Shown here one piece after another: positions 4,486-45,726 of a stretch of 64,000 nucleotides of DNA. Origin of the DNA: a virus (lineage: Duplodnaviria > Caudoviricetes); the IMG/VR virus record IMGVR_UViG_2675903066_000001, positions 30,717 through 94,716 of that record; one strand, written 5' to 3'. The notes under the pieces are model-generated. The model ran no database searches. It saw nothing but the letters and a program-made list of their open reading frames with translations, and was not told the origin of the DNA. Position numbers and translations under genes: made by a program. Every line of letters begins with the position of its first letter. The first letter of the stretch is position 1.

Positions 4486-5274
4486 CTAGCGATTGATCCA
4501 CACGGACTCCACGGCGTGCCTCCGCTCGTCTGAGCTGGAGGCGCGCACTCGGTAGTCGATGCGGCGCCAGTCGGAGAGCAGCTCGTCGTACAGCTCGCTG
4601 CGGTACCCGGACAGCACCACGGCTCCCTTGCAGGCGGCGAGGACCTCCAGGAGGCGGCGGTGCTCGGGCTCCAGGTCCATCTCCTTGACGTAGTGGCCAG
4701 AGCCGAACTCGTTCCGCGTGCTGCGCAGGTACGGCGGGTCGACGTACATCGCGGTCTGCGGCGAGTCCATCCGCTCGATCAGCTCGAACGCGTCCACCTG
4801 CTCGATGAACGCCTCCCGCAGCCGAGCCGCGTGCCAGCGCAGAGCCGCGGCGGCCCGCTTGGAGCCGGCCGGGTTGTTGACCCGCGTTCTCGAGGTCGGC
4901 CTGCGCCAGGAGGCGCCGGCCTCACCGCTGCGGGACTGCGTGCACTGGATCCACCAGCGGCGGGCGCGCTCCAGGTCTGACGCGGTGTTGTCGCCCAGCT
5001 TGGCGGCCTGGTGCTCGGCGCGGGCGTACGGCGTCAGCTCGATCGCGCGGATCAGCGATCGGGGCCGATCGCGCAGCGTCCTCATGAAGCAGATGAGGTC
5101 GCCGTTGATGTCGTTGATCGTCTCGATCTGGACGGGCTGCTTGGCGAAGAACACCGCGGCGCTGCCCGCGAAGGGTTCGACGTACACCTCGTGCGGCGGC
5201 AGGAGGCTGGCCAGGAACGGGCCCAGCCTGCCCTTGGCGCCGTAGTACTGGAACGGAGGGCGCAGGGCATCCAA
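4486..5274 (-). CDS. DNA adenine methyltransferase (Dam/D12 class)
   Basis: YYGAK, YVEPFAGSAAV (motif I), IND and DPPY (motif IV). Confidence 0.92.
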   Translation of the reverse strand: MDALRPPFQYYGAKGRLGPFLASLLPPHEVYVEPFAGSAAVFFAKQPVQIETINDINGDLICFMRTLRDRPRSLIRAIELTPYARAEHQAAKLGDNTASDLERARRWWIQCTQSRSGEAGASWRRPTSRTRVNNPAGSKRAAAALRWHAARLREAFIEQVDAFELIERMDSPQTAMYVDPPYLRSTRNEFGSGHYVKEMDLEPEHRRLLEVLAACKGAVVLSGYRSELYDELLSDWRRIDYRVRASSSDERRHAVESVWINR

Positions 5275-6044: not shown

Positions 6045-7019
6045 CTACTCCAGCGCCGACGCCACCAGCTGCGACGGATCCCGCTCCAACAGGCGGCCGG
6101 AGTGCACGTACCGCATGGTCGTATCCATCGACTCGTGGTCCAACGCGTCCTTGATCTCGAACGAGTCCGCGCCCAGCTCCGCAGCGATCGACGCCCACGT
6201 GTGCCGCAGGACGTGCGGCGTGATGCTCAACCCCGCCTGACGGCCGACCCGCGCCACCAGCTCCGACGCCGACGACCGGTAGAAACGGCCACCCGTGTCC
6301 GTCACGAAGATCCGCCCCGTCAGCTGCGACACCTCGACGCCGGCGCGGCGAGCCCGATCCTCCAGATACCGGTCAATCGCATACCCGGTCTCCACCGGCA
6401 AGCGGCGCCTCTTCGGCTTGGTGCCCTTACCGACGATCCTCAGGCTTCGCAGGCCGCGCTCATACCCGAGTGCGGCCAAGTCCGCCGACACTGCCTCCTC
6501 GATCCGGACCCCGGTCTGCACCAGCACCCGGATGAACGCCGACGTCCGCAGCCGGGCCGGCCCGTGGTCAGAGTCGGCCGCGGCAATCAGCTGACGGGCC
6601 TCGGCCAAGGTCAGCGCCGTCGTCTCGGAGTGGTTGCGCGACAGCTTCGGCCTGCGCGTGCCCTTGAACCGGTTGGCGTCGATGACCTCCTCGTCGACGA
6701 GGTAGTCGTACCAGGCCGACACCGACGACAGGCGCCGCGACATGGTGGCCGGGGGCACCGCCTTACCGGTCTTCTCCACGGCGCGGAGATCGAGCCAACG
6801 CTTGTAGACGTCGCCGTGCGACTTGCGCGCCTGGAGCGGGTCAAGCCCGGTCTCCCGGCAGAAGTCGAACCACATCGCGAGGTCGCGCCGGTAGCCGTCC
6901 CGCGTGTTCGGCGAGTCGTACGACAGCAGCCACGACATCGTCGCGTCCTGAGCGAAGCCGAGCAGACCGGGCGGGAACGCGAGTTCTCCGCCCCCGCGCG
7001 GCACCAGTTCGGCGGTCAC
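6045..7019 (-). CDS. Tyrosine recombinase (XerC/D-like resolvase/integrase)
   Basis: SPNTRDGYRRDL core-binding domain, TGVRIEE (Arg), GKG (Lys), PHVLRH, LDH and TTMRY (catalytic Tyr). Confidence 0.93.
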   Translation of the reverse strand: MTAELVPRGGGELAFPPGLLGFAQDATMSWLLSYDSPNTRDGYRRDLAMWFDFCRETGLDPLQARKSHGDVYKRWLDLRAVEKTGKAVPPATMSRRLSSVSAWYDYLVDEEVIDANRFKGTRRPKLSRNHSETTALTLAEARQLIAAADSDHGPARLRTSAFIRVLVQTGVRIEEAVSADLAALGYERGLRSLRIVGKGTKPKRRRLPVETGYAIDRYLEDRARRAGVEVSQLTGRIFVTDTGGRFYRSSASELVARVGRQAGLSITPHVLRHTWASIAAELGADSFEIKDALDHESMDTTMRYVHSGRLLERDPSQLVASALE

Positions 7020-21172: not shown

Positions 21173-21568
21173 CTATCGGTTGCGGCCGGGCTCGCTGCTC
21201 CGGGTGATGGACGTTCCGCCAATCGAGGCGAACTCGATGCGGCGGACGATCACGCAGCCGGTGCACTTGCACTCGGCGAGCAGGTCGCGCTCGTTGTTGT
21301 TGCGGTACGCCCAGGTCGCGTGTCCGGCGAGTTCCTCGCGCATGACGCGGAGCATGTGGTCCCGCTCCCAGCGCACTTCTGCGAGGTTCTCGGCCAGCTC
21401 AGCCTCTCGGCAGTCGCACGCGGGGTGGTGGTCTGCGCAGGCTCGCCAGCGCGGATCCATGGTGTTCTTCGGCAGCGGCAGGACCAGCGGAATCTCCGGG
21501 CGCTTCTCGCGCCACCGGGGCGGTCTGAACCGCACCACGTGGCGCACGGCCACCTCTGTGGACGCCAT
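21173..21568 (-). CDS. Hypothetical Cys-containing protein
   Basis: Coupled to the RecT-like gene. Confidence 0.55.
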   Translation of the reverse strand: MASTEVAVRHVVRFRPPRWREKRPEIPLVLPLPKNTMDPRWRACADHHPACDCREAELAENLAEVRWERDHMLRVMREELAGHATWAYRNNNERDLLAECKCTGCVIVRRIEFASIGGTSITRSSEPGRNR

Positions 21569-23028
21569 CAGAAGCCGCCGCCCTGCTGCTCACCCTGCTG
21601 GGCCTCGGCCGCCTGCTTGGCGGCGCTAACCATGGTCTCCCAGGTGGCGCGGGGCTGCTCCGCGCCGAGCGCCGCCTCCAGCAGCTGGGCCACCGCTTCC
21701 ACCTGCTCGAATGTCAGGTCGTCGGCGTTCATGATCGGCTGCTCCAGGATGATGGACAGGTCCTGGAAGCGGTCCTCGCCGTTGGTGATGCCGATCCGGG
21801 TGAAAGACTCGTCGATCTGCTTGTAGAGGCTGAGCCGCCGCTTGGCGCGCTCAACCAGGAGCCGCTTCAGCTCGTCGATGGCGGACTGCGCCTGGCCGTG
21901 GGTGAGGTTCTTCGTCGAGCCCTCGACCGGGACCTTCAGGAACTCGGACAGCCACGCGAACCGTGCCTCGTCGTTCAGCTTCGTCGATCCGCGCCCAGTG
22001 TGCACGGTGATCCCGGCGTCCGTCATGAGGATGCCCAGCTCGCGCAGCTGATCCTTGTTCGCGGGCTCGTCCTCGACGACGTCGCCCTCGACGGGCTCGT
22101 CGGCGTCGGCCGGAGGCTGCTCGCCGCCGGCGAGCTTCTCGTCCGGCGCCGCGGCGACCGGCCCGCTGGCGGGCTCGGCGCTCGCCTGCGCCTCCTCCGG
22201 CTCCATCACGGTGGGCGGCAGGTGCTCGCCCCGGCCGAGCGCGCTCTCCACCGCGGCGGCCTGCGCCGGCGTCAGGTCAGCCGCCGACCGGAAGGTGTAG
22301 TCCGGGTGGACGAGATGCAGGTAGCCGAGCTTGTCAGTCACGCCCTTCTCGTCCATCAGCTTGGCCAGGCGGCGAAGCTGATCGGTGGTGGCCTTGACCA
22401 CGCCGGTCACCTCCTGCGAGGCCGTGGCTGCCTCGCGCACCGAGGCGCCCGCCTCCACCCTGGCGTCGGTGACGACGTACGAGCCGTCCGGGTTCATCTC
22501 CGCGCCCAGCTCCTCCGGCACGTAGGTGAAGCCGAGCAGCGCCTCCTTGCAGGCTTCCCGGGCGCATTCGGACACCGAGCGGGCCTTGAGCATCTGCTCG
22601 GGGTACTTGAGGTAGTTCTCGTTCTGCTTGATCAGCCCGGCCTTCCGGGCCCGGTCCATCGTCCACGTCGCCCGGAACTCGAAGTCCGGGTCGTCGGCAC
22701 GGATGATGGTGGTGACGGCCTTGACGACGTTGCCTTCGTCGTCGTGCTCCACCCACGTGCGCAGCTTGTGCCCGGCCTTACGGACCAGCGCCGACATGAG
22801 GCCTGCCGACGCGGTCGGCTTGCCCTTGATGATGTGGACCTCGGTGATGGCGACCATCGGCTCGACGCCGAGCGCGATGCCCCACTCGACCGCGTACAGC
22901 ACGTTGGCGGGCTGCTTGCGGTAGGCGTCCGGCAGCAGGCCCGCGTTGGACAGGTCCTGCGCGTACTTGATGCGGGCAGGCATGTCCCACGTGGCGATAG
23001 CGGGCAGGTTGGGGGTTGCTGCGGTCAT
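21568..23028 (-). CDS. RecT-like single-strand annealing protein with long C-terminal extension
   Basis: LLPDAY..QPAN...LGVEPM.A...IIKGKP...YPEQML.AR; directly downstream of the YqaJ exonuclease. Confidence 0.75.
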   Translation of the reverse strand: MTAATPNLPAIATWDMPARIKYAQDLSNAGLLPDAYRKQPANVLYAVEWGIALGVEPMVAITEVHIIKGKPTASAGLMSALVRKAGHKLRTWVEHDDEGNVVKAVTTIIRADDPDFEFRATWTMDRARKAGLIKQNENYLKYPEQMLKARSVSECAREACKEALLGFTYVPEELGAEMNPDGSYVVTDARVEAGASVREAATASQEVTGVVKATTDQLRRLAKLMDEKGVTDKLGYLHLVHPDYTFRSAADLTPAQAAAVESALGRGEHLPPTVMEPEEAQASAEPASGPVAAAPDEKLAGGEQPPADADEPVEGDVVEDEPANKDQLRELGILMTDAGITVHTGRGSTKLNDEARFAWLSEFLKVPVEGSTKNLTHGQAQSAIDELKRLLVERAKRRLSLYKQIDESFTRIGITNGEDRFQDLSIILEQPIMNADDLTFEQVEAVAQLLEAALGAEQPRATWETMVSAAKQAAEAQQGEQQGGGF

Positions 23029-23975
23029 GCTGCGACTCCTTGCAGTTCAGGGGTGGGAAGGTCGGATTCGACGACCAGGAAGGGGGTGCCGCCGCCCTTC
23101 GCCTGGCGGCGAGCCACGTTGTCGAGGCCGAACCGGGCGCGGCCGGCCAGACCCATCGCATCGAGCAGCTCGGCGCGGGCCTTCTCAGCTCGGGCCTTGG
23201 CCGACTTCGCTTCGGCGGCCGCCGCCTTCTCCTCCGCGAGGGCGGGGAGCCAGCGGGCGGCCTGCTCGTCGGTGATGTCGTAGATGAGTTCGTTGTCGAT
23301 GTCGGGGTGCCGCTTGCGGATGGCCTTGACGGTGGCCTTGTGGCCGTCGACGGGCGGCATCTCGTCCCACGCGATGCTGAGCAGGAACTCCTCGGCCTGC
23401 CTGCGCATCCACTCGGCGTCGGCTTCGTCGGGCAGGATGTGGTACTCGCGGAAGTCGAAGCCGCGGCCGATGACGACTGCGACCTTCCACCACGGCAGGC
23501 CGGTCACGTCGAGGTACCAGCGGACCTGGGTGAGGTAGTGGAACGGGATCTCTGCGGTTCCGGAGGTCCCCCAGCCGCGGCCGTCAGCGTCGGTCTTGAT
23601 CTCCAGTCCGCCGACCACGCGACCGTCCTGCAGAAGGAACCGGTCGGGGTTGGTGAGCTGCCAGTCCCGATCCGGGTCAGCGTGCACGTACGTCCCGGCT
23701 TCGACGACCTCGAACTCGGGGTGCTCGTGAGCGAACCAGGCGGCCACGCCAGGCTCCAGGAAGTGGCCGCGTGACTGCTGGTCGTTCTGGGGGTCGGGTT
23801 CGATGAGTCCGGCTTTCTCGCACCACAGGCTGTACTTGGACTGCCACTTGGACAGGCCGATGATCGCGGCGACGTCGGATCCGCCGATGCGGTGCTGACG
23901 TGCTGCGTGCCACTCGGGGCTTCCGGAGGCCCACCGGCCGAGGTACCGGCCGGTGGGTGTGACGAGGGTGGTCAT
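23025..23975 (-). CDS. YqaJ/lambda-exonuclease family recombination nuclease
   Basis: EWHAARQHRIGGSDVAAI, GHFLEP, NPD...LEIKT, YLTQVRWY. Confidence 0.92.
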   Translation of the reverse strand: MTTLVTPTGRYLGRWASGSPEWHAARQHRIGGSDVAAIIGLSKWQSKYSLWCEKAGLIEPDPQNDQQSRGHFLEPGVAAWFAHEHPEFEVVEAGTYVHADPDRDWQLTNPDRFLLQDGRVVGGLEIKTDADGRGWGTSGTAEIPFHYLTQVRWYLDVTGLPWWKVAVVIGRGFDFREYHILPDEADAEWMRRQAEEFLLSIAWDEMPPVDGHKATVKAIRKRHPDIDNELIYDITDEQAARWLPALAEEKAAAAEAKSAKARAEKARAELLDAMGLAGRARFGLDNVARRQAKGGGTPFLVVESDLPTPELQGVAA

Positions 23976-24364
23976 CAAAACGGGGGCTCCTGGAACTTGC
24001 GCTCGCGCCCCTCGCGGACCAGGTGCCACGGTCCCCGGATGGACAGCATGTCGTCGAGGTCTTCCACGGCGAAGTTCCCGCCCGTGTTGACCAAGGTGAC
24101 CTCTCGGTTTCCATGTCGGCGGACCGCGTACCACTCGACGTCCTGGCCGTCTTCCCAGATGTCGCCCTCGATGGGCGGCCACTTCTCGGGGGTGAGGACC
24201 TCGACGTTGATGCCTTCGGTGTGCAGCGGGATCTCGCCGACGAACTTGGTGACGCCGTTGGGCTGCGGGAGGCTGACGAACAGCTGGTCGCCGTGCTTGA
24301 GCTCGTCGGCCTCGCACAGGATGGTGATCCTCAGGCGATCACCGGGCCGGATCTTCGGCGTCAT
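23975..24364 (-). CDS. Hypothetical protein
   Basis: TGATG coupling on both sides. Confidence 0.6.
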   Translation of the reverse strand: MTPKIRPGDRLRITILCEADELKHGDQLFVSLPQPNGVTKFVGEIPLHTEGINVEVLTPEKWPPIEGDIWEDGQDVEWYAVRRHGNREVTLVNTGGNFAVEDLDDMLSIRGPWHLVREGRERKFQEPPF

Positions 24365-25532: not shown

Positions 25533-25685
25533 TCACTCTCCTGGCTTTGTCAGTGGTACCGCTTGCGCTTTTGGCGAGGTGTTACGTGTGGTGTCCTCGC
25601 TTGGGGCTCGGTTCCGTTTCTGCTGGTTATTGCGGTCTCGGTGCCCTATTTGATCTTGTTTCGGACAGGCTGAACCGAGATCTCA

Positions 25686-25715
25686 ACCATATCGTGAGCA
25701 TGTCCTGTGTGTCCA
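25686..25715 (-). promoter_or_regulatory. Putative leftward housekeeping-type promoter
   Basis: TGGACA-N18-TATGGT on the minus strand, divergent from the repressor. Confidence 0.5.
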
Positions 25716-25864
25716 CTTTGGTGCGTACATACGTGACAGACGCGACACTCTTGCACGTGATTTCATGATCACCTTTAGTGATCGCTTTTTTGTCCAGCCC
25801 TGGGCGACATGGCGTACACGTTGGTACTGTTGCGACAATTACGCCACGAAAGAAGGACGCCACC

Positions 25865-26371
25865 GTGCCCACCCCACCGCAGAGGCCTGCCGACGCGGCA
25901 CTCCTCCACCACCTCCGCACCCGGCGAGACGAGCTGCTGCCCGAAGTCCCTCTCAAGGCCATCGCCGACAAGGTCGCACGGACGGCGGGCTACAACTTCT
26001 ACCCCAACAAGCTGCGCCGCATCGAAAGCGGCGAGACCAGTGCCAGCGATCTCGACTACGCCTGGGTTGCCTGGGCAGTCAACGCCACGCCCAACCAGGT
26101 CGAGGAAGTCGGCCGGCCCGAGGCCGCCCGCCTGCTTCGCGAGATCATCGACAAGCACTCCCCCAAGGACACCATCCTGTCCGCAGTGCTCGCTCCCGAC
26201 GTAACCCCCGACGCCGTGCAAAAGCATCTCCGGCAGAAGCTTGAGGAGATCAGGTCGGCACCAAATTTCACGCCCGAGGAGCGGGCCAGCATGGAGGAGT
26301 TCCTCATCGCCCAGATCGAGCTTCTGCTCCAGAATGTTGGGCGTCAGATGGAGATGCTCCGCTCACGCTGA
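25865..26371 (+). CDS. XRE-like HTH repressor (candidate immunity repressor)
   Basis: LRTRRDE...LKAIADKV...LRRIESG; divergent from the early operon; GTG 25865 with GAAGG RBS. Confidence 0.65.
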   Translation: MPTPPQRPADAALLHHLRTRRDELLPEVPLKAIADKVARTAGYNFYPNKLRRIESGETSASDLDYAWVAWAVNATPNQVEEVGRPEAARLLREIIDKHSPKDTILSAVLAPDVTPDAVQKHLRQKLEEIRSAPNFTPEERASMEEFLIAQIELLLQNVGRQMEMLRSR

Positions 26372-26381
26372 CCCGCAGAGA

Positions 26382-27341
26382 TCAGTTCAGCCAGTTACGC
26401 GCGGCATGGAAGATCAACGCTGGGCGGGAATCAACTTCCGCGAGGTCCCGCATCCGCTTGATCCGCCGCAGGATCGTCGACTTGGACACATCCATCAGCC
26501 GGGCCATCTGTTCGTCCGTCTGCCCTGCCACGATGTACTGCAGGATCGACATGTCGACCGGATCCAGCTCGGTGTGCTTATCGGCGGCGGCCAGGCGGGG
26601 ATCGCGCAAGGGAACTGCCTCGTTCCAATGATGCTCGAACACTACGATCATGGATTCCAGCAATGACCCGCCACGGATGAGAAGCGTGGACATCTGATCC
26701 GGATATCCACGAGGCCACCTCGGCACCAACGCCTTCTCGCGGTCGGAGATGATCAGCTTGAACGGCAGACTCTTGGCCACCCTCACGTCTGTGCCCAGTG
26801 CCACCACGTTCCGCAGCCCGGACATGGCGTTCTCATCGTCCAGCACCGCCTGCTCGTAGATGAAGCGACGCTTCGGCCGGCGCACCGTGCCGTCCGGGTT
26901 GCGTCGCGCCGGGTCCCCCGGTGCATGCACCCTCGTAAGCGGGATGAACGGGTAAGTGGCGAACTGCATCACCTCTCGGTGTGCTCCGAGAGTGAGATCG
27001 TCGATCGCGGCCCCGACGCGCTGACGCGATTTGAGGACCTCCACGGGCGCGTTCGGGCCGTACTGAGTGTTCGCCTCGTACACCTCGCGCAGTTCTTCCG
27101 CCTGCAGCTTCAGACGCGCGAGGCTCACTTCCGCCTGTGCCACGACAGGCTGCAGAGCGAAGTCCGGGTGGCGCGCAGTGGCGGGTTCACCAACGACAAG
27201 TCCGACATCACGCAAGCGTTCGAGTGCGTACTCGGCGGGCAGACCGCCGAAACGTTCCAAAAGCTGCTGCGTCGACGTTGGGCCTTCCTCGATCAAGTAG
27301 ATGTAGATCGAGGCCCCGGTGTCGCCGATCCCCATGGGCAC
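26382..27341 (-). CDS. TrmB-like/LuxR-type transcriptional regulator
   Basis: N-terminal wHTH, central LPFKLIISDRE..LVP domain, C-terminal GQTDEQMARLMDVSKSTILRRI HTH. Confidence 0.88.
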   Translation of the reverse strand: MPMGIGDTGASIYIYLIEEGPTSTQQLLERFGGLPAEYALERLRDVGLVVGEPATARHPDFALQPVVAQAEVSLARLKLQAEELREVYEANTQYGPNAPVEVLKSRQRVGAAIDDLTLGAHREVMQFATYPFIPLTRVHAPGDPARRNPDGTVRRPKRRFIYEQAVLDDENAMSGLRNVVALGTDVRVAKSLPFKLIISDREKALVPRWPRGYPDQMSTLLIRGGSLLESMIVVFEHHWNEAVPLRDPRLAAADKHTELDPVDMSILQYIVAGQTDEQMARLMDVSKSTILRRIKRMRDLAEVDSRPALIFHAARNWLN

Positions 27342-27372
27342 GGCTTGATCTCCTTCGTTGCATCCCGGTTGG

Positions 27373-27633
27373 TTACAGCCGCGCCCGCGCTGGTTGGTGG
27401 AGCAGCGCGGCGGTGCTGCGTGCATGTTCCAGGCCGAAGCGGTAGGCCCGGCGCCAGGCCGCCACGGCGCGGTGGACCACGACCGCCAAGGTCGCGACTA
27501 GCACTGCTACGCCGGCCCACAGCAGGATGACCGCCCCGGTCATGCCGGAAAGGCCTGTTGCGATGGTGGCGGCGGCCACCGCGGCGGCCACCGAAGTGGC
27601 CGCCGCGGCGATGTACATGGTGAGCGTTTCCAA
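27373..27633 (-). CDS. Small two-TM membrane protein
   Basis: Two hydrophobic helices followed by AYRFG..HA. Confidence 0.6.
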   Translation of the reverse strand: METLTMYIAAAATSVAAAVAAATIATGLSGMTGAVILLWAGVAVLVATLAVVVHRAVAAWRRAYRFGLEHARSTAALLHQPARARL

Positions 27634-27636
27634 GAT

Positions 27637-28017
27637 CTACCAGCCTCCGGCGTCGCTGTCGGCTGACGCCGAGACCTTGGTGGTGGTCACGGTGGTCGTC
27701 GACTCGGTGACGGTGCGGGTGATGGTCTTGCTGCCGTCAGGGTTGTAGACGGTCTGGATGGTCTCGGTCTTGGTGCGGGTGCCTGGCTTGGTGGTGCTGG
27801 TCGGCGTCGCGCTCGCCTCAGGGGTGGGCGGGTTGAGGGTGAGCTCCGCGGTGGGGGTGGGCTGCGCAGTGGCAGTCGCGCTTTCGGATGCGGACACGCT
27901 CGGCGAGGGAGAAGGGCTGACAGGGTCGGCCCAAGCAGAGGAAGAAGCGCTTACGGCGACGAGCAGAGCGGTGCCGGAGATAGCGAGGGCGGCGCGAAGA
28001 CGCGTGATCATTGTCAA
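27637..28017 (-). CDS. Secreted Ser/Thr/Pro-rich protein ending in DSDAGGW
   Basis: Sec-type signal peptide (..SSSAWA/DP) and a low-complexity mature region. Confidence 0.75.
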   Translation of the reverse strand: MTMITRLRAALAISGTALLVAVSASSSAWADPVSPSPSPSVSASESATATAQPTPTAELTLNPPTPEASATPTSTTKPGTRTKTETIQTVYNPDGSKTITRTVTESTTTVTTTKVSASADSDAGGW

Positions 28018-28162
28018 GAGCTGCTTTCAAAGCGAGATGGGTAGCGCGTAGGTGCGACACGGAAGCCGGATAGCGGTTTCCGCTTGGCTGGCATTACGCA
28101 CCGTGCGCGTCGGAGCGATCCATGTAAATCCTTGAATGACGGGTATGTCCAGATGAACGGGT

Positions 28163-28187
28163 TGACACTTTAGACACATGACACTTT
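28163..28187. promoter_or_regulatory. Direct repeats in a divergent promoter region
   Basis: TGACACTTT at 28163 and 28179, with GACAC between them. Confidence 0.45.
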
Positions 28188-28336
28188 GTTGTCACCGTCA
28201 GACAAGCCGGAAAGGAACCGTCCGTAACGATCGGGCATCAGCGGCGGTTCAGCAGTACCCCGGTGTTTCGCACCTGACCATGACTGGCTAAGTTGACCAC
28301 GGCCCTATCTGTGGGTTGACCCCCTAAGGAACGCAC

Positions 28337-28546
28337 ATGACACGCATCGCCGCGATCGCCATGAGCATTGTCTTCATCGTGGCGCTCATCGAGCACGCCC
28401 TAAAAGGCACTGCGCCCGCCATGCTCGTCGCCCTGGCCGCGCTCGCCATGGTGAGCGTCACCGCGACCGCGGCACTCGGCCGCCCCCGCCGCCTGGCCGG
28501 CCTCGCCTACCGCCGCGGCTATCAGGACGCCAGCCGGACGCCTTAG
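28337..28546 (+). CDS. Small two-TM membrane protein
   Basis: Two hydrophobic helices followed by AYRRG..DA; AAGGA RBS. Confidence 0.65.
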   Translation: MTRIAAIAMSIVFIVALIEHALKGTAPAMLVALAALAMVSVTATAALGRPRRLAGLAYRRGYQDASRTP

Positions 28547-29244
28547 CTCTCCTCGCGTTCCTTGACGAAGGTGCCCTTCGCGGCCACCGTCACGACCAGG
28601 CCCTGCTCCTGCAGCAGGGCGATCGCGGCCCGCACCACCTTTCGGGACATCTGGAACTGCTCAGCCAGCGCCACCTCTCCCGGCAGGCAGTCGCCCGGCA
28701 TGTAGCGGCCGTCGCGGATCTGCGCGGCGATCGCCTCGGCCAGCTTCTCGCCCTTCGTCGCCTCTCGACGAACTTGCGTTCCCTCAGGGCCGACGAAACG
28801 GCCGTGCCGACCGCGTGAGTGGATCAGACCCTCCTGGCGCAGCTCCCGCAGAGCCGCGCGGATCGCCGGCGAGGACAGCTTGTAGGTGGCCATCAGCTCT
28901 GGCTCCTTGGGCAGCTGATCTCCTGCCTTCAAGGTGCCCTTCGCGATGCCTTCGCGAATGTCGTGCAGCATCCGCCCGGTCGCTGACATCGGCGGCGTAC
29001 AGCCTTTGGGATCGGTGACGAACGAGCCGGAGCCTTGCACGGTGACGATCAAGCCCTTCCGCCTCAGGCGCTCGAGACCAGATCGGACGGCCGCGCGGCC
29101 GACGCCATACGCGGCTTGCAGGTACGGCTCGGACGGTAGCTGGTCACCTGGACGGAGTCTGCCCGCCTCGATATCGGCCAGCACGCCAGTCGCGACGCGC
29201 TCCCCCGGCGTCATGGCGGGGGCCTCGTCGAGGGATGTGGTCAC
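28543..29244 (-). CDS. Protein of three tandem GntR winged-HTH domains
   Basis: GDQLPSE, GDQLPKE and GDCLPGE units, each ending in a G.FV wing. Confidence 0.9.
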   Translation of the reverse strand: MTTSLDEAPAMTPGERVATGVLADIEAGRLRPGDQLPSEPYLQAAYGVGRAAVRSGLERLRRKGLIVTVQGSGSFVTDPKGCTPPMSATGRMLHDIREGIAKGTLKAGDQLPKEPELMATYKLSSPAIRAALRELRQEGLIHSRGRHGRFVGPEGTQVRREATKGEKLAEAIAAQIRDGRYMPGDCLPGEVALAEQFQMSRKVVRAAIALLQEQGLVVTVAAKGTFVKEREES

Positions 29245-29282: not shown

Positions 29283-29759
29283 CTATTGGGACGCGTTGGG
29301 TGGTTTTGGGTAGGTGCCCCGGCCCGGGACGGTGTAGACGACGTCCTGCTCGCGCAGAAGCCCGAGCGCCCGCCGCACCGTACCCTTGGCCACGCCGTAC
29401 TCCTGGGAGAGCTGCGTCTCGGACGGCAGCGGTGTCTCCTCGCTGAACCGGCCGGCCCGGACCTTCGCGGCCAGGTCGTCGGCGATCGACTGGAACTGCC
29501 AGCCGGCGCGGGCCTCCCGCGGTGCATTTTGCGGCCCGACGAACGAGCCTTCCCCTCGCACGGTATAGATCAGGCCCGCCTCGCGCAGCTCCTTGATGGC
29601 TCTGCGGGCGGTGATCCGTGCGACGCCATACTGCGCCATCAGCTCCGACTCCGAAGGGACCAACGCGCCCGGGCCCAGCTCGCCGTCATCGATGCGCTTG
29701 CGGAGCGCATCGGCGAGCTGGTCGTAGAGCGGCCGCGGGCCGCGCGGGTTGAGCTGCAC
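29283..29759 (-). CDS. Protein of two tandem GntR winged-HTH domains
   Basis: VPSESELMAQYGVAR and LPSETQLSQEYGVAK units; no effector domain. Confidence 0.9.
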   Translation of the reverse strand: MQLNPRGPRPLYDQLADALRKRIDDGELGPGALVPSESELMAQYGVARITARRAIKELREAGLIYTVRGEGSFVGPQNAPREARAGWQFQSIADDLAAKVRAGRFSEETPLPSETQLSQEYGVAKGTVRRALGLLREQDVVYTVPGRGTYPKPPNASQ

Positions 29760-29884
29760 GTCACGGACGCTAGATGTCCTGGTACGTGCTCCCATCGGCG
29801 ACTACATGTAGTTAGCAATTCTAATCCTTCTATTAAATCGTCTAGTACAAGCCCTAGACCGATAGGGACAGGTGCCATTACCGT

Positions 29885-30223: not shown

Positions 30224-30936
30224 GCGGCTACACCATCATTCCCCAGGTCATTGCCTACAGCGGCGAGATCGTCGACGACCCGATCATCTACGTACCGGAC
30301 GACGGCACCGACCGAGGAGAGAGGCTCTCTTACCAGGACCCGAAGTCGTCCGACTACCTCAACGGTGTGCTGCGCGCCCGCGTGAAAACGAACCGGGCTG
30401 GTGTGGTCCGCATGCGCAAGCTGAACACCCGGCGGCAGTGGGCGTGCATGGATCACGGCATGTGCCAGGTGTGCGGCAAGTTCGCGCGCGATCCGCAGAC
30501 GAAGCGCCTCTGGTGGCTGCTCGTGCCCCCGGTGTTCGAGCAGGTCGACGTCGACTCCGGCCGCACCAACGCGCCACCCATCTGCCAGACCTGCATCCCG
30601 TTCGCGCTGCGCGACTGCCCCATGCTGCTCAGGAACGTCACGTTGTGGTCGGTGGGCTGGACGGAGTCAGCCGGAGTGCTGGGCGACCTGTACCGGCCTA
30701 ACGTCTGCGGCATCCCGCACCTGAAGCTCAAGAACGTGTTCGTCCCGTGGGACAACTTCCGCCGCCTGCCGGACACGCTCGCCACGAGCCAGGTCCTGCT
30801 GCTGAAGGACATGCGGCAGCACGACCTCCCCGAGCCGGCGCCACCGGACCCCGAACCGATCCATCCTGTGGGGGTGCCTGAGCTGGCGTGGCCACCACCT
30901 CGCACCCAGGACCGCGCTTCCCCGCACAGGTCCTGA
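30220..30936 (+). CDS. Cys-rich hypothetical protein of actinomycete mobile elements
   Basis: RQ..CM...CQVCG...PPICQTC...CP; GTGA coupling. Confidence 0.7.
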   Translation: MSGYTIIPQVIAYSGEIVDDPIIYVPDDGTDRGERLSYQDPKSSDYLNGVLRARVKTNRAGVVRMRKLNTRRQWACMDHGMCQVCGKFARDPQTKRLWWLLVPPVFEQVDVDSGRTNAPPICQTCIPFALRDCPMLLRNVTLWSVGWTESAGVLGDLYRPNVCGIPHLKLKNVFVPWDNFRRLPDTLATSQVLLLKDMRQHDLPEPAPPDPEPIHPVGVPELAWPPPRTQDRASPHRS

Positions 30937-33447: not shown

Positions 33448-34287
33448 ATGCCCCGCAAGAAGTCCGACCCCAGAACGGTTGCGTTCGTCGAACCCGGAAA
33501 AGCGCAAGCGGAACCACAGGCACCTCGCAGGCCAATGCGCGTCCGGGAAGCCCAATGGACGAATCTCCACACCACCAGCGCCCGCCTCGACTCCACCACC
33601 GACGATCGGCTCACCGCCGCCGTGCAGCGCACCGGGCAAGGCCCGCAGGAGATCTGGGAAGACGCCATCAACTTCTTCTCCGATCGAACCGGCATCCCCG
33701 AGGAGATGCCGGCCACTGCGGACCTGAAGCTTCCAAGCCCCACGGAGTACCGCAAGGGCGGGCAGGACCTCCTCCAAACCACCGTTCGGCTCACCACCAA
33801 CACCAGAGCGCGTCTCGCTGCCGCAGCGTCGCGCCTCGGCCTGGGCGGAGCCGAGACCATCATCGAGGCACTCAACGCCTGGTTCGACGAGCTGGGCATC
33901 CCCGGCGAATACGACCGTGACAAGGTGTTCCAGCGGCCCACCCTGTACTCCACCGCCGCCAAGCTCGACGAGGCGACGCGCGCGCGAGTGAAAGCCGCCG
34001 CCGAGCAGACAGGCCAAAGCATTCAAGGGGTGTGGGAGACCGCGATCAACGCGTACGCCGGCCGCCATGGTGCACCCAAGCAGATGCCGGAAGGTTCGGA
34101 GGTGGCGTTGCCGACACCGCGAACGAAGAAGCGAGGCGGAGATGACAAGCCGACGGCTGTCCGGTTGACGGAGAACACCCGGGCCCGCCTGGTCGCGGTG
34201 TGCAGTCGCCAGTCCAGGACTGGCAGCGACGTGATCGCCGACGCATTGACGGCGTACTGTGATCGTCTCGATATCCCTGCGCCCTGA
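33448..34287 (+). CDS. Protein with four tandem ribbon-helix-helix domains
   Basis: Four repeats of T(S/T/A)(A/V)(R/K)L...T..R(L/V)...A(I/L).. ending in G/D-I/A-P. Confidence 0.75.
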   Translation: MPRKKSDPRTVAFVEPGKAQAEPQAPRRPMRVREAQWTNLHTTSARLDSTTDDRLTAAVQRTGQGPQEIWEDAINFFSDRTGIPEEMPATADLKLPSPTEYRKGGQDLLQTTVRLTTNTRARLAAAASRLGLGGAETIIEALNAWFDELGIPGEYDRDKVFQRPTLYSTAAKLDEATRARVKAAAEQTGQSIQGVWETAINAYAGRHGAPKQMPEGSEVALPTPRTKKRGGDDKPTAVRLTENTRARLVAVCSRQSRTGSDVIADALTAYCDRLDIPAP

Positions 34288-41423: not shown

Positions 41424-43349
41424 CTATGCGGTAAGGGCGTAGTCGTGGGCGAACCGGTCGAACTCGACGTTGAGGATCGCCTCGATGACAGCACACGCGA
41501 GGATCTCGGCCATGGGCGGAGGTACCGCGTTGCCGATCAGCTTGACCTTGTCGCGCGCGGTGTCGGCGACGAACCGGTAGTCGTCGCGGAACGACTGGGC
41601 ACGCTGCAGTTCCTTGAGCTTGAGCATCCGGAACTTGATGGACTGCACGTCGATCTGGCCGTCCGGGGTGAGCAGCGCCCATCGGTCGCGAGTCGGAACC
41701 GTTCCCAACGGCTCGTTCACGCCCTGCACGCGGCCGTTGCCGTAGTACGCCATCAGCAGCGTCTCGGGCATGGGCAGGCCGGGCGGAGCGGTGACGAGCG
41801 ACTGGTGCCCGGTCGTGGTGACCGTGCGCATGTGCTCGCTGGTCGGCGTGACGTGCTCGCGCCCGTCTCCCTTGGAGCCGTTGTTGCGCATCAGGAGCGA
41901 AGGCGGAGGCGACCAGCCGGGAGGGACGCCGAGCCCGTGATGGAAGCCGCCGGCCGTGACCGCATGCGCGGGGTCCTCGAACGCGGGCCTCGACCTGAAC
42001 TCGTCTCCACCGCCACGGAACGGGAACATCAGCGGCAGCATCCCGTCCTTCATGTCGGGGTCGCTGGCCAGCGCGTGGTTGGAGCCGTCCGAGACGAGGG
42101 TGGCCAGCGGGTCCGTGGTCGGGTTGGTGTTCCGCGCCCGGTCCGACCGCATCAGGGACAGGAACGCCGGGAACGCGCCGAGCTGCGAGTCAGGGTTGAA
42201 CGCGATGGCGTCTTCCAGCCGAGTCGTGCTGGTTCGTTTCGGCATGCTGGTCGGCCGGGCCTTCTTGCCGTCGCGCCCTTCGCACGGCACGACAAGCGCG
42301 TTGGCCTCGCGCGTGGTGAGCGCGGAGATCGGCTCGTCCACTCCTCTGGGGCCGTCGTTCCACGTGCCGCCCGCGGGAGTGATGAACGGCTTGATCCAGT
42401 GCTCTTCGACGCCAGCACGGATACGGGCGATCGTCTTCGGCGCCAGGCCCTCAGGCTTCTGCTTCGTCTTCTTCCTGGAGCCGATCGGCGTGCCGAGGTC
42501 GGTCCAGTCCACCGCGTAGGCGGCGGGGAGCACCGGAGGTTCGATGATCTGCCCCTGGCAGGACACCTCGGGACACACCCACACGTACTGGCCGTGCTTG
42601 ATGCCGTAGACGCCCATGTCCACGCCGTGGCGCTTCCACGCCCTGACGGCCTGCACCCATCCTCCGTGGCTGGGACAGAAGGCGTACGGGTCGAACCACT
42701 TGGAGTAGTTCGGGGTACGGCCCACGGACTCGTGGACGGCCGAGACGAGCATCCGGTCGCGGGACTGCGGGGTGGGCAGCGTGGTCCGGCCTTGTACGTG
42801 CGCGGCGTTGACGGCGTGGATCTGGACGATGTACCCGAGCTTCCGCAGCTCGCGGATCCACCGGTCCCAGTGCGCCCACAGGCGCGCTTGGACCACGTTC
42901 TCGACGCCGAAGCCCAGCACCGGCTTGCCGTGCTTCTCCTGGCAGTGGCGCAGGTAGGTGACGACCTCCTCCATCAGGGCGCGACTTCGGATGCGGGTCT
43001 TCTGGTGCTCGTCGAGGTCGTCCAGGTCGTCGGCCCAGAGGGCCATCTGGTTCTCTTTGTCGAAGTACCGCGTCTCGCCCGAGGCCGTACTGAACGCCGG
43101 ACACGCCGGAGATGCCCAGAAAAAGCTGGCGTAGGGGAACTTCTCGATGGCGTCGGCCGCCTGGACGTCGCCGAGCCAGAAGTCGACGTCGGGGTGGTTC
43201 GCGACGTACGTCCACTTCGCCGTCTTCGCGTGGTTGGCGGCGAACTTCAGCTTGGTGCCGGGGACGGCCGCGATTCCGGTTCCGGAGCCGCCGCCACCTG
43301 CGAACATCTCGACAACGTCGATGTCGTCGGGGAAAAGCCGGTTAAGCAC
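41424..43349 (-). CDS. DNA cytosine-C5 methyltransferase with long variable region
   Basis: FAGGGG (I), SPAC (IV), ENV (VI), QSRDR (VIII), RML...E..RAQSF (IX), GNAVPP (X). Confidence 0.93.
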   Translation of the reverse strand: MLNRLFPDDIDVVEMFAGGGGSGTGIAAVPGTKLKFAANHAKTAKWTYVANHPDVDFWLGDVQAADAIEKFPYASFFWASPACPAFSTASGETRYFDKENQMALWADDLDDLDEHQKTRIRSRALMEEVVTYLRHCQEKHGKPVLGFGVENVVQARLWAHWDRWIRELRKLGYIVQIHAVNAAHVQGRTTLPTPQSRDRMLVSAVHESVGRTPNYSKWFDPYAFCPSHGGWVQAVRAWKRHGVDMGVYGIKHGQYVWVCPEVSCQGQIIEPPVLPAAYAVDWTDLGTPIGSRKKTKQKPEGLAPKTIARIRAGVEEHWIKPFITPAGGTWNDGPRGVDEPISALTTREANALVVPCEGRDGKKARPTSMPKRTSTTRLEDAIAFNPDSQLGAFPAFLSLMRSDRARNTNPTTDPLATLVSDGSNHALASDPDMKDGMLPLMFPFRGGGDEFRSRPAFEDPAHAVTAGGFHHGLGVPPGWSPPPSLLMRNNGSKGDGREHVTPTSEHMRTVTTTGHQSLVTAPPGLPMPETLLMAYYGNGRVQGVNEPLGTVPTRDRWALLTPDGQIDVQSIKFRMLKLKELQRAQSFRDDYRFVADTARDKVKLIGNAVPPPMAEILACAVIEAILNVEFDRFAHDYALTA

Positions 43350-43426: not shown

Positions 43427-45079
43427 CTACTCCTCGGCCGGGATGACCACGAGCACCGTGCTCACGTTGGTCCCGGCCGATGCGAACGCGTCGTCGGGCA
43501 GTTGCGTGATGCTGCCACCGCGGGCCTCGACCAGCTCGCGGAACTCCTTGGCGACGTTGGCGACATGGTGGGCGACGCCGTTACTCATGACGGCGACCAG
43601 CCGACCGCCAGGCTTGAGGAACCGGAGCGCGTGCGTGACGTGCCGGATGTCCTGGCCTTTCGAGAACGGCGGGTTCATGACGACCCGGTCGAACCGGTAC
43701 GGGTAGTTGTCCGGCTCGACCTGGAGGAAGTCACCCGAAGTCACGTCGGCAACGGCATCCATGTCCAGCAGGTCTGGCGCGAACGGCGCGTACAGCTCCA
43801 CGCAGTGGACCGCGAGAGCGCCCGCCAGGGCGGCCGCCTTCACGAGCGCGCCCCGCCCTGCTGACGGTTCGAGGACCGTCATGCCGGGACGGATCTCGGC
43901 CGCCTCGATCACCCGCTCGACCACCATGGGCGTGGAGAAGAACGTCTCCAGGCCGCGCGGAACCTCCAGGGCCGCCGTCTCGATCTTCGCCGCGAGCTCG
44001 GCCACGTCCAACCTCGGCGCCTGGACCGTGCGCCGCGCAGGCGCCGGAGGCGGGGGCGGGGCGGGGCTGTCGGACTTGGGCTTGGCGGCCGGGAAGATGG
44101 TGTCCTCGTGCGGGCACTCGACGGCGCGGATCTCGGTGAACTTCACCTTGTCCGGCCACGAGTACCCGGACTCGACACTCACCGTCACCTTGTTGACCTT
44201 CACCACGGTGCGAGGCTGCAGTCCCCAGTAGCGGACGACGTCGCCGACGTGCACGTTGTGCTTGCCCCACTCGACGTACTGACCCGCCTCCACCGCGGCG
44301 TCCAGCTGCGCACGGTCGTACTGGAGCTGGTTCTCCAACTGGGCCTTGCGGGCGAGCAGCCGTTCTCGGTAGTCGCCGGTGGCGGGCTTGTGGACCTCGA
44401 TGTAGTACGGCTCGCCCGCGTGGTCGAGATGCCTGCGCTCGTGGCCGTCCAACGCCTTCTGAATCTTGCGCAGCTCGGCCTCGGCCGTCTTGATGCGGCG
44501 AGCCGTCACGGCCGGGGTCGCGGAGCGACGCATCTGCGAGCCGACCGCGCTGGCGCGGCGGGCCACCTCGTGCGCCGCCTTGTCCTCGTCGACGCTCTTG
44601 CGCATCGCGGCGTGCATCTTCTCCCGGTCCCGACGTGCGCCCGGCTCCGAGTGGTGGCCGACGAGGATGGGCTGACCGCCCGCGAACCGTTCGCTGAGCT
44701 GCGACGCCCGCTCGTGAGCGGAGGCCGCCGCGCCGGCGTGGCGTTCGACCTTCCGCTCCAGCGCGTCGCGGCGGTCTTCCAGCCGGTCGGCCTTGTCCTC
44801 CAGGACCTGGGCGCGGTCGCGAAATTCGTCGTCGATCTCGACGGTGACGTCGAACCCGGCAGCGCGCAGCGCCTCAGCCGCCTGGTTGATGCGGTAGCGG
44901 TCGGCCACCTGATCGCGGCTGCTGCGGATACCAATACAGGGCAGGCCCTGCCTGGCCATGCTGGGGAAATAGGCGAATCGGCCGTTCTCCCACTTCTTGA
45001 CGATGTCGAGCACCCCGTCGCCCTTGACGGTCCCGTACACGAGGGTGCCGTCCTCATGGTTGTGCTTAATCGTGATCAC
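43427..45079 (-). CDS. DUF3560 domain fused to N6/N4-type methyltransferase
   Basis: GQPILVGHHSE (DUF3560), then FF.TP, VLEPSAG.G and VMNPPF. Confidence 0.88.
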   Translation of the reverse strand: MITIKHNHEDGTLVYGTVKGDGVLDIVKKWENGRFAYFPSMARQGLPCIGIRSSRDQVADRYRINQAAEALRAAGFDVTVEIDDEFRDRAQVLEDKADRLEDRRDALERKVERHAGAAASAHERASQLSERFAGGQPILVGHHSEPGARRDREKMHAAMRKSVDEDKAAHEVARRASAVGSQMRRSATPAVTARRIKTAEAELRKIQKALDGHERRHLDHAGEPYYIEVHKPATGDYRERLLARKAQLENQLQYDRAQLDAAVEAGQYVEWGKHNVHVGDVVRYWGLQPRTVVKVNKVTVSVESGYSWPDKVKFTEIRAVECPHEDTIFPAAKPKSDSPAPPPPPAPARRTVQAPRLDVAELAAKIETAALEVPRGLETFFSTPMVVERVIEAAEIRPGMTVLEPSAGRGALVKAAALAGALAVHCVELYAPFAPDLLDMDAVADVTSGDFLQVEPDNYPYRFDRVVMNPPFSKGQDIRHVTHALRFLKPGGRLVAVMSNGVAHHVANVAKEFRELVEARGGSITQLPDDAFASAGTNVSTVLVVIPAEE

Positions 45080-45726
45080 TGCTCGGAGTCCTCGCCCTCG
45101 CCGTCGACGTCGGCCGGGAAAAACCCGATGTCGTCCTTCAGCACCCGGTCGAGCAGTTCGCGGACCTCGTCGCGAGTCGGCGCGGGACCGCGCACCACCT
45201 CGTAGACAGCGCAGGTCTCCGGGCAGCGCAGGCCCACGTGGGTGCCGCAGTGGTCGCAGGGCCGGTTCTTCGGCACGGTGTCGCGCACGTCGAACACCCG
45301 CTCCGACGTGAACCCGCTCCACTCGCCCGCGTCGACCTCTTCGGTCTGGCCGGTCTCCTTGTTCTCGAACTCCTCGACCTTCTTGCCGCCGCGGCGGCGG
45401 GCGATGACCCGCATCGGCTCGGCGGTCTTCAGGACGGCGCGGTCCTCCTTCGCCCAGAAGAACGCGGAGTTCACCCGCGTCGCGTTCGGGTTCTGGGCGA
45501 GCATGGCCAGCGCGTTGCGCAGCGTGCGGTGGCCCTGCACACGGGCCGCGTACTCGCGGAACGCGTCGATCAGGTCCGGCCGCTGCGAAAGCGCCCGGGC
45601 GCCCATCACGACCGCGTCGCTGACGATCTTCTTGTCAGCGTCCTTGCTTTCGCGCCACACCTGCTTCTCGGCCTCGGTCCAGCTGGCGCGAGGACGGGTG
45701 CGGCGGCGTCGACTCTTGAGAGTCAT
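45076..45726 (-). CDS. ArdC-like ssDNA-binding domain protein
   Basis: RNAL...QNPNAT.V.....W....R.V.K...F....VFDV.DT. Confidence 0.7.
   Translation of the reverse strand: MTLKSRRRRTRPRASWTEAEKQVWRESKDADKKIVSDAVVMGARALSQRPDLIDAFREYAARVQGHRTLRNALAMLAQNPNATRVNSAFFWAKEDRAVLKTAEPMRVIARRRGGKKVEEFENKETGQTEEVDAGEWSGFTSERVFDVRDTVPKNRPCDHCGTHVGLRCPETCAVYEVVRGPAPTRDEVRELLDRVLKDDIGFFPADVDGEGEDSEQ

Follow-up and report, generated by a model that had tools for sequence, protein, structure and literature searches.

We analysed a 64,000-nucleotide stretch of DNA, referred to below as the window, that spans positions 30,717 to 94,716 of IMG/VR virus record IMGVR_UViG_2675903066_000001 (Duplodnaviria; Caudoviricetes). 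The element is a prophage of a Nonomuraea-like actinomycete; homologues of the regulator described here carry the name Nonomuraea in public records, and the GC content of the window is ~0.65-0.72. Beside the recombination genes of the leftward early operon lies a compact cassette of four genes, here called X, R, M and S (Table 1). A first-pass annotation had proposed that the cassette encodes a secreted protein (S), a protein with two transmembrane segments (two-TM; M) and a TrmB-like/LuxR regulator (R), read leftward and convergent with X, and all of this was confirmed both in the window and in related genomes. The cassette X-S-M-R is probably a phage peptide-signalling module of a non-RRNPP kind, an interpretation drawn from comparison of its genes.

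Table 1. Features of the cassette and of its surroundings in the window
Feature	Position	Strand	Description
X	25865-26371	+	168 aa, GTG start; helix-turn-helix (HTH) protein, XRE-like, helical C-terminal domain
R	26382-27341	-	319 aa; N-terminal winged HTH, coiled coil, PLD-like central domain, C-terminal LuxR/GerE HTH
M	27373-27633	-	86 aa; two-TM hairpin, short outer loop, basic cytosolic tail WRRAYRFGLEH
S	27637-28017	-	126 aa; likely ATG start at 28011, giving 124 aa
S tail	27640..27660	-	codons for D-S-D-A-G-G-W; proposed signal peptide (pheromone) region; S ends ...SADSDAGGW
Leader hairpin/palindrome	28097..28109	-	GCGCA-N3-TGCGT in the 5' leader of S; same place in L093-L096
Candidate S-operon promoter	28121..28151	-	TGGACA, 19 nt, TACATG; predicted from sequence
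Operator-like repeats	28163..28194	.	two copies of TGACACTTT, 16 nt apart, and palindrome TGACA-N6-TGTCA
Promoter-like site	25686..25715	-	TGGACA-18-TATGGT; leftward early operon; context, outside the cassette
Early operon (RecT/RecE)			leftward from promoter-like site 25715-25686
RecE-like exonuclease	23025-24317
RecT	21568-23028
Tyrosine integrase	6045-7019		after the terminase, ParB-like and DNA methyltransferase genes
Terminase large subunit	78-1364

Secreted protein S and its tail

S starts with an AxA-type signal peptide, which ends in AWA and lacks a lipobox Cys, and continues with a Ser/Thr/Pro-rich linker, a Thr-rich NPDGS module and the C-terminal tail. Ser, Thr and Pro make up 53% of the mature protein, and the GC content at third codon positions (GC3) is 0.83. 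No conserved domain was found in Pfam, PHROGs, PADLOC or NCBIfam, the sole weak match being to phrog_4544 (unknown function, E 0.008). The body is predicted to be disordered (predicted local distance difference test (pLDDT) 0.34 for the Atlas model), and structural look-alikes of S and M in the Atlas stayed below the threshold. In the 8.27-Mb genome that contains the window, 40 frames with a length of 40 codons or more terminate in GG[W/M], three of which pass filters for signal peptide, size and GC3; S is the only small Ser/Thr/Pro-rich secreted protein with this ending.

S proteins range from 63 to 182 aa, and in an alignment of 26 of them (A2) two Gly residues of the tail are the sole invariant columns, in agreement with the conserved C-terminus that had been predicted. 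Eight of the 26 consist of nothing but signal peptide, short linker and tail. The claim that the C-terminus is the only distinctive sequence of S holds in that the tail is the only invariant part, but the Thr-rich module is a second recognizable element. This module, TVTNPDGSKTIT, is found in 18 of the 26 proteins and occurs three times in the S protein of one locus (L100:11287-11835). Its N-x-D-G start is loosely tail-like, and the module could be a decayed copy of the peptide or a separate β-hairpin domain.

The general form of the tail is x-[H/D/T/N]-x-G-G-[W/M]-COOH. Counted over 30 loci, the last residue is Met in 17, Trp in 12 and Val in one, preceded by Gly at position -2 (30 of 30) and at position -3 (29, with one Ala). 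Position -4 is variable. Position -5 holds His (13), Asp (7), Thr (5), Asn (2), Ser (2) or Val (1), and position -7 Asn (15), Ser (5), Gln (4), Thr (2), Tyr (2), Asp (1) or Met (1). At the DNA level, the first Gly codon at 23 loci is GGC in 21, GGA in one and GGT in one; the second is GGC in 18, GGT in two, GGA in two and GGG in one. All three stop codons are represented, and GGAGG within the tail codons is confined to the window (one of the 23 loci). Because the Gly codons vary synonymously, the stops vary and GGAGG is so rare, the conservation lies at the level of the protein and not of a ribosome-binding site.

A survey for co-variation revealed that the tail classes follow the clades of R: the residue at -5 tracks the clades on the R tree, and the last residue needs at least two changes between Trp and Met on the same tree.

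Regulator R

The AlphaFold2 model of R (pLDDT 86.6) has its closest Foldseek matches in TrmBL2 (5bpd_C, E 5.4e-12), TrmB (3qph_A, 2.5e-6; 2f5t_X, 1.4e-4) and the nuclease Nuc (1byr, 1.5e-5). The winged HTH, the long helix and the PLD-like domain superpose on those of archaeal TrmB/TrmBL2 (3qph, 2f5t, 5bpd). The known ligands of TrmB are sugars; unlike TrmB, R carries a LuxR-type HTH instead of the sugar-binding C-terminal subdomain, and the R of the window gave no match to Pfam TrmB (PF01978) at E <= 0.01. A search of PDB sequences with a profile of 22 cassette regulators (A1) matched positions 243-315 to the HTH of VraR/NarL (E 1.7e-7). The R of the window scores 19.8 bits against Pfam GerE, below the cut-off of 23.5, which is passed by five of the seven R homologues tested (L157, 34.9; L158, 27.8; L115, 26.4; L111, 26.3; L102, 24.2). 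No tetratricopeptide repeat (TPR) protein is among the listed fold matches of R. The predicted fold is thus of the TrmB/PLD/LuxR type and not of the RRNPP/TPR type, which upholds the suggestion that the receptor lies outside the RRNPP family.

In a quick FastTree of the R family, rooted at the midpoint, chromosomal paralogues that lack a peptide gene (among them ones from Streptomyces and other families) branch within the phage-borne GG[W/M] group. Going by this tree, such 'solo' chromosomal regulators would be derived from phage R.

Membrane protein M

M has no family match in Pfam, PHROGs, PADLOC or NCBIfam, and its structural look-alike, the two-TM effector family SLATT, falls below the threshold. 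An alignment of M proteins (A3) shows an invariant Trp at the outer end of the second transmembrane segment (TM2), a conserved basic tail, (R/K)RAYxLGxEH, and an outer loop of ~5-10 residues. An M homologue adjoins the other genes in 29 of the 30 loci that carry S; in clade D the gene comes after R. M is truncated in L114 and absent in L109, which keeps S and R.

Conservation of the cassette

A search with R gave matches at E <= 1e-30 in 32 of 110 genomes of the genus, and matches to S lie directly beside R homologues in ten places. In a first set of 30 loci (L001, L007-L035; one a 717-nt fragment), an open reading frame (ORF) ending in GG[W/M] and a stop is found within 900 nt upstream of R in 23. 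Six loci without such an ORF upstream (L029-L033, L035) are a separate group of chromosomal paralogues of 317-329 aa.

With profile A1, the broad R family was found in 229 of 401 genomes of the order. The cassette type is set apart, with 24 places at 292-449 bits and the remainder at 250 bits or below, and reaches five further genera of the same family, six in all; the hosts are Streptosporangiaceae-like. Among 401 genomes sampled across the class, nothing exceeds 201 bits outside the window genome, a tally that takes in the unpublished genome G729 with a paralogue match of 147 bits. A search of 1.84 billion representative proteins gave 8 clusters with 290 bits or more, 12 with 239 bits or more and 1,100 at E <= 1e-30.

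We fetched 31 loci of 20 kb, which together with the window make 32; the six-locus paralogue group and the relatives in G084:C2 and G089 were left out. R has a linked S in 30 of the 32, across six genera of one family, as had been predicted for homologues of the regulator. The strict GG[W/M] ending is present in 28; L109 ends in GGGV and L119 in AGM. The two loci without S, L122 and L123, are without X too, and their R genes score lowest. The S frame of L101 has no signal peptide.

As controls, we used 47 R paralogue loci (205 bits or below) from the window genome, the genus, the order and the class. Same-strand and both-strand scans found an S-like ORF in none of these 47 chromosomal loci, the both-strand scan returning only two Arg-rich, out-of-frame artefacts. 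The both-strand motif scan found exactly one S-like frame in each of the 29 positive loci.

A homologue of X adjoins the cassette in 28 of the 31 fetched loci. Among the 29 loci with X, the gene converges on R in 22, with gaps of -14 to 53 nt, and is co-directional with it in six clade-D loci and in L109. The gene order is X-S-R-M in the six co-directional clade-D loci and X-S-R in L109. Of ten loci listed for this comparison, eight contain X as well as RecT; in these eight the two genes are divergent, and this is so in both gene orders. Since the adjacency of S, M and X and the synteny recur across related loci, the cassette is a fixed part of a predicted immunity-like region in a family of related, mosaic prophages.

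A distant lineage in Streptomyces phages

A tblastn search with R of 50,697 phage records matched only Streptomyces phage Chymera (two records of one genome), with 28% identity over 82% of R. The R-like gene gp29 of Chymera lies beside the integrase gene gp32 and the annotated immunity repressor gene gp33. Divergent from gp29 is gp30, which encodes a signal peptide and a 29-residue part that starts with DPGWG and ends with NDPGWG. The small membrane protein gp31 of Chymera does not resemble M; it shares the motif LR(A/T)EVAC(L/A)RIE with one IMG/VR prophage protein near a peptide gene. These two proteins, both unrelated to M, are encoded at L172:1241-1582 (-) and L156:3192-3458 (-).

Relatives of gp29 occur at three places, in 2 of the 301 genomes searched within that family, and on one further contig. 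All four loci carry a small ORF, divergent from the R-like gene, for a secreted protein with repeats (DSGWG three times in two loci, DIGWG twice in the other two), and in all four precursors the last copy of the motif is at the C-terminus. The regulators of this lineage score 57-84 bits against A1, yet hhalign gives a probability of 97.8% over 264 columns; by this profile comparison they are homologous to window-type R. Single R proteins used as queries retrieved close relatives only, and two IMG/VR relatives of L158 end at the end of the contig, with the peptide side outside the sequence.

We also carried out the reciprocal search, scanning IMG/VR with a loose DNA pattern of two motif copies followed by a stop. 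Among the 80 matches listed, of at least 118 raw matches, there are three in-frame two-copy ORFs with a signal peptide (DVGWG twice, DVGWG twice, DLGWG twice), and beside all three of these lies a divergent R-type gene with 38-45% identity to the others. In total, the lineage comprises Chymera and seven prophage loci, all with small secreted precursors that hold two or three exact copies of D-x-G-W-G. In all eight loci, residue x is identical in every copy within a precursor, and it differs between loci. R proteins that share x are mutual nearest relatives (77, 95 and 65% identity vs 33-46% otherwise). Compared with the D-A-G-G-W of the window, the order of the last two residues is swapped. 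No M homologue is found in the Streptomyces-type loci, and an unrelated small membrane protein is present in two of the eight (Chymera gp31 and L172). Tandem copies with a constant x per precursor are the signature of a pheromone, here putatively processed, with pherotypes.

The statement in the first-pass annotation that genes of the TrmB-LuxR type often neighbour short secreted ORFs ending in D..GW thus has a counterpart in the D-x-G-W-G copies of the Streptomyces-phage lineage, but 'often' fails, as the chromosomal paralogues lack any such ORF (0 of 47).

Regulatory DNA upstream of S

A simple pattern scan for T[A/G]GACA-N16-20-TATGGT/TACATG, the type of the candidate S promoter, found this arrangement in 17 of the 28 loci scanned, at a distance of ~80-140 nt upstream of S. 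The direct repeats noted earlier are real, with exact copies of TGACACTTT at 28163 and 28179 in a conserved operator-like stretch, but their number is not above chance (4 matches with at most one mismatch vs 3.66 expected). The stretch with TGACACTTT is kept upstream of S in the five closest loci (clade A), and also fits a consensus promoter, GTGACA-17-TAAAGT.

Just upstream of the promoter-like arrangement, each of several clades has a palindrome of its own: TGACA-N6-TGTCA in clade A, a version that includes the TGACACTTT repeats, GACATG-N3-CATGTC in clade B, ATGAC-N8-GTCAT in clade D and TGGCAC-N4-GTGCCA in clade F. Within the window, TGACA-N6-TGTCA together with TGTCA-N11-TGTCA is found only at the S promoter; this uniqueness fits autoregulation by a presumed binding protein.

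Both arms of the leader hairpin are altered together in L093 (ACACA...TGTGT), and Rfam gave no match for the cassette region, the hairpin included. In clade E, a palindrome GTCAC-N7/8-GTGAC directly follows the -10 element. Both the leader hairpin and the clade-E palindrome are candidates for a second operator or for an RNA element.

Gene X and the prophage

X occupies the position of cI: it is divergent from the leftward early operon, and its 3' end abuts R. The two genes converge with a gap of 10 nt in the window and no predicted terminator between them. X had been called an XRE-like repressor. The assignment to XRE is weak and comes only from the fold: the top Foldseek matches of the AlphaFold2 model (pLDDT 87) are all HTH proteins of the XRE type (ClgR, EspR, DdrO and the N-terminal domain of lambda cI), at E values of 0.04-0.6. 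X has no match in Pfam, PHROGs, PADLOC or NCBIfam at the thresholds used, and a profile search of PDB sequences gave nothing significant. Outside the prophage family, X-like genes were limited to two weak matches, neither with a cassette. The intergenic region between X and the early operon (25600-25720) contains three copies of the motif TCTCGGT/ACCGAGA, and its promoter-like site resembles the proposed S promoter in type. The motif copies and the site are possible operators of X.

The 69-aa two-TM ORF at 28337-28546 (+), divergent from the cassette, ends in LAYRRGY, which recalls the RRAYRxG tail of M. It lies inside the region first described as the cassette and is not a conserved part of it, as a homologue is found in one of the 31 loci only, L093. 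Its match to the M profile is not significant (E 0.67). Two adjoining genes at 28543-29244 and 29283-29795 (-) encode GntR-type winged HTH repeats alone, three in the former and two in the latter, with no effector domain; their homologues are found by tblastn in 17 of the 31 related loci, and they may be further regulators of the switch. The only DNA similarity of the element to sequenced phages, a match of 117 nt, lies in a GntR gene. By tblastn, both RecT and a 279-aa protein at 33448-34287 (+) have homologues in 22 of the 31 related loci; matches of the latter to ribbon-helix-helix proteins (RelB-like, TraY-like) are weak and all under the cut-off. The prophage also carries a ParB-like gene (1883-2644) and at least three DNA methyltransferase-like genes (4486-5274, 41424-43349 and 43427-45322). 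The contig extends beyond the left end of the window by 30.7 kb, and the structural genes are presumably located there.

A model of peptide signalling and its alternatives

In the model that we propose, the module sits directly downstream of X, the gene in cI position, in temperate phages of Streptosporangiaceae-like hosts. Sec would export S, whose variable and largely disordered body would act as a carrier, and a short C-terminal oligopeptide, in the window approximately (S)DAGGW, would be cut off outside the cell. The peptide would build up with the density of lysogens or infected cells and be taken up again, possibly via family-5 peptide-binding proteins of the host. The 20 genes for such proteins in the host genome (SBP_bac_5) show only that an uptake route exists. 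In the cytoplasm, the peptide would bind R and alter its activity. By acting at the palindromes that precede the S-M-R promoter and differ by clade, R would regulate its own operon; directly or via transcription that converges on X, it would bias the control of lysogeny and lysis. M would be an accessory membrane component.

The signature is of the pheromone type because the carrier is replaceable, the tail has an invariant core with variable positions and the copies in tandem are exact. It is also of this type because the peptide gene is strictly paired with a single family of regulators, even where the lineages are deeply diverged and the order of the genes has changed, and because it is absent from paralogues without phage context. 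For a peptide signal derived from S with R as its receptor, as part of a phage-borne four-gene signalling module, we see an even chance of being right. More tentatively, and leaning slightly towards doubt, we extend this to a general statement: temperate phages of Actinomycetota would signal with genetically encoded oligopeptides of the D/H/T-x-G-(G/W)-(W/G/M) type, in which one variable residue sets the pherotype. Such pheromones would be released from precursors that Sec exports, and a receptor class that combines a TrmB-like winged HTH, a PLD-like domain and a LuxR HTH would sense them and so decide between lysogeny and lysis.

Several observations weigh against peptide signalling through R. 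The polar residues conserved in the central domain of R (R159, E163, R187, K195, D200, F235 and W239) are equally conserved in the peptide-less paralogues; therefore, no peptide-specific pocket is visible, and none was found in R. TrmBL2, the nearest fold to R, does not have the subdomain with which TrmB binds sugars. As a propeptide, S would be long, and a Thr-rich hairpin module is retained in the majority of the aligned S proteins (18 of 26). The co-variation of tail and R fits co-diversification and equally the co-inheritance of neighbouring genes. As the operator motif is confined to the S promoter in the 64-kb window, no regulon and no link to lytic or lysogenic promoters can be derived from it, and because the orientation of X and R varies, convergent interference cannot be the general output. 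Finally, M is present in all but one of the 30 loci, a hint of a step at the membrane for which the uptake model has no need.

This last point is the basis of a transmembrane relay, in which M would sense the tail of S, intact or trimmed, outside the cell, and its cytosolic tail would hold or release R or X, with no uptake. The constancy of M even where the gene order has changed, its invariant Trp and conserved basic tail, and the conserved residues of the R central domain that are not specific to peptide-bearing loci all speak for it. Such a relay would have to work with an outer loop of merely ~5-10 residues, and it is hard to reconcile with L109, which has S and R without M, and with the Streptomyces-type loci, which keep S and R without an M homologue and of which two of eight have an unrelated small membrane protein; we regard it as unlikely. 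A role in lysogenic conversion or exclusion, with S and M as prophage effectors (for example, blocking superinfection), R as their dedicated transcription factor and the tail serving effector function or anchoring, appears somewhat more unlikely still. In its favour, exclusion genes such as lambda rexAB and Ltp/Sie often sit just downstream of the cI-like gene of a prophage, the cassette has its own predicted promoter and unique operator, and the sub-threshold SLATT look-alike of M is an effector family. Against it, PADLOC gave no match, S is devoid of a lipobox, an anchor and any folded domain that is conserved, its replaceable body is predicted to be disordered, and exact tandem copies of five residues between Pro/Thr linkers are hard to explain for an exclusion protein.

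The pairing of a small secreted precursor with a small membrane protein also resembles bacteriocin-immunity pairs, so that S might be the precursor of an antimicrobial or other bioactive peptide, M the immunity protein and R the regulator. With no modifying enzyme, protease or dedicated exporter in the cassette, proposed peptides that are short, acidic or neutral and Gly-rich, and no M in most Streptomyces-type loci, this explanation is highly improbable. Finally, GG[W/M] could be a by-product of nucleotide signals for the next gene, namely a Shine-Dalgarno sequence within the S codons or a GTGA overlap of stop and start. The tail codons of the window (GGA GGC TGG TAG) do contain GGAGG ~10 nt before the TTG start of M, and TGG TGA overlaps the start of M in several loci. 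The codon analysis led us to reject this origin, to which we assign a negligible probability: GGAGG occurs in one of 23 loci, GGC GGC dominates along with synonymous variants, and all three stops are used. At many loci the start of M lies 20-50 nt farther downstream and is preceded by a separate ribosome-binding site, and in clade D, S is followed by ~80 nt without any gene.

Discussion

Communication by phage peptides is known from Bacillota, with receptors of the RRNPP type. If S is indeed the source of a peptide signal sensed by R, one close counterpart is arbitrium, the AimR-AimP-AimX system of SPbeta-like Bacillus phages. Both are found in temperate phages, in the lysogeny-control region and next to a transcription-factor gene. 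Both involve a Sec-type propeptide whose functional part is the last few C-terminal residues (proposed here from the genes alone), and a peptide in which some positions are conserved and others vary from one phage clade to another. A small secreted propeptide that adjoins R and has conserved C-terminal residues also corresponds, at the level of the genes, to a trait of RRNPP(A) systems. In contrast, the arbitrium receptor is a TPR protein, whereas R combines a TrmB-like winged HTH, a PLD-like domain and a LuxR HTH; moreover, S is longer (63-182 aa), the window type has an extra two-TM gene, and the host phylum is Actinomycetota.

The cassette likewise recalls the Rap-Phr systems of Bacillus phages and of ICEBs1 (ImmR/ImmA/RapI-PhrI), where a propeptide gene lies beside a sensor gene on a mobile element with an XRE-type repressor as neighbour. 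Unlike these, it contains no Rap/TPR protein or ImmA-like protease, and the candidate sensor R is itself DNA-binding. The Streptomyces-type precursors share tandem pheromone copies with Phr propeptides, a feature that a published account describes as known for those of Bacillus phages (PMC11343458).

With LuxR quorum-sensing receptors and LuxR solos, R has in common the C-terminal GerE/LuxR HTH, and the palindrome upstream of the -35 element of S is reminiscent of activation from a lux box. The autoinducer-binding domain of these receptors is absent from R, the N-terminal two thirds of which have an unrelated fold. S also differs from the Ltp/Sie exclusion lipoproteins, as it has neither a lipobox Cys nor a conserved folded domain.

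No account of peptide signals in actinophages, of Chymera gp29-31 or of the peptide motifs turned up in the literature library searched. One source describes the signals of Actinomycetota as typically small molecules made by enzymes, and peptide systems as belonging to Bacillota (PMC10075063). From the comparison of genes and predicted folds presented here, our finding is probably a case of mobile-element peptide communication, a known kind, with a non-RRNPP receptor.

If this is true, it would represent convergent evolution of viral communication, with an arbitrium-like logic built from unrelated parts, and would add peptide signalling to a phylum whose signals are thought to be small molecules. 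It would also give a new ligand-sensing role to the widespread and uncharacterised bacterial TrmB-PLD-LuxR family, which comprises 1,100 clusters at E <= 1e-30. Since phage Chymera and its host S. venezuelae are both cultured, the model is directly testable. The clade-specific tails and operators would furthermore offer orthogonal peptide-regulator pairs for the engineering of antibiotic-producing actinomycetes.

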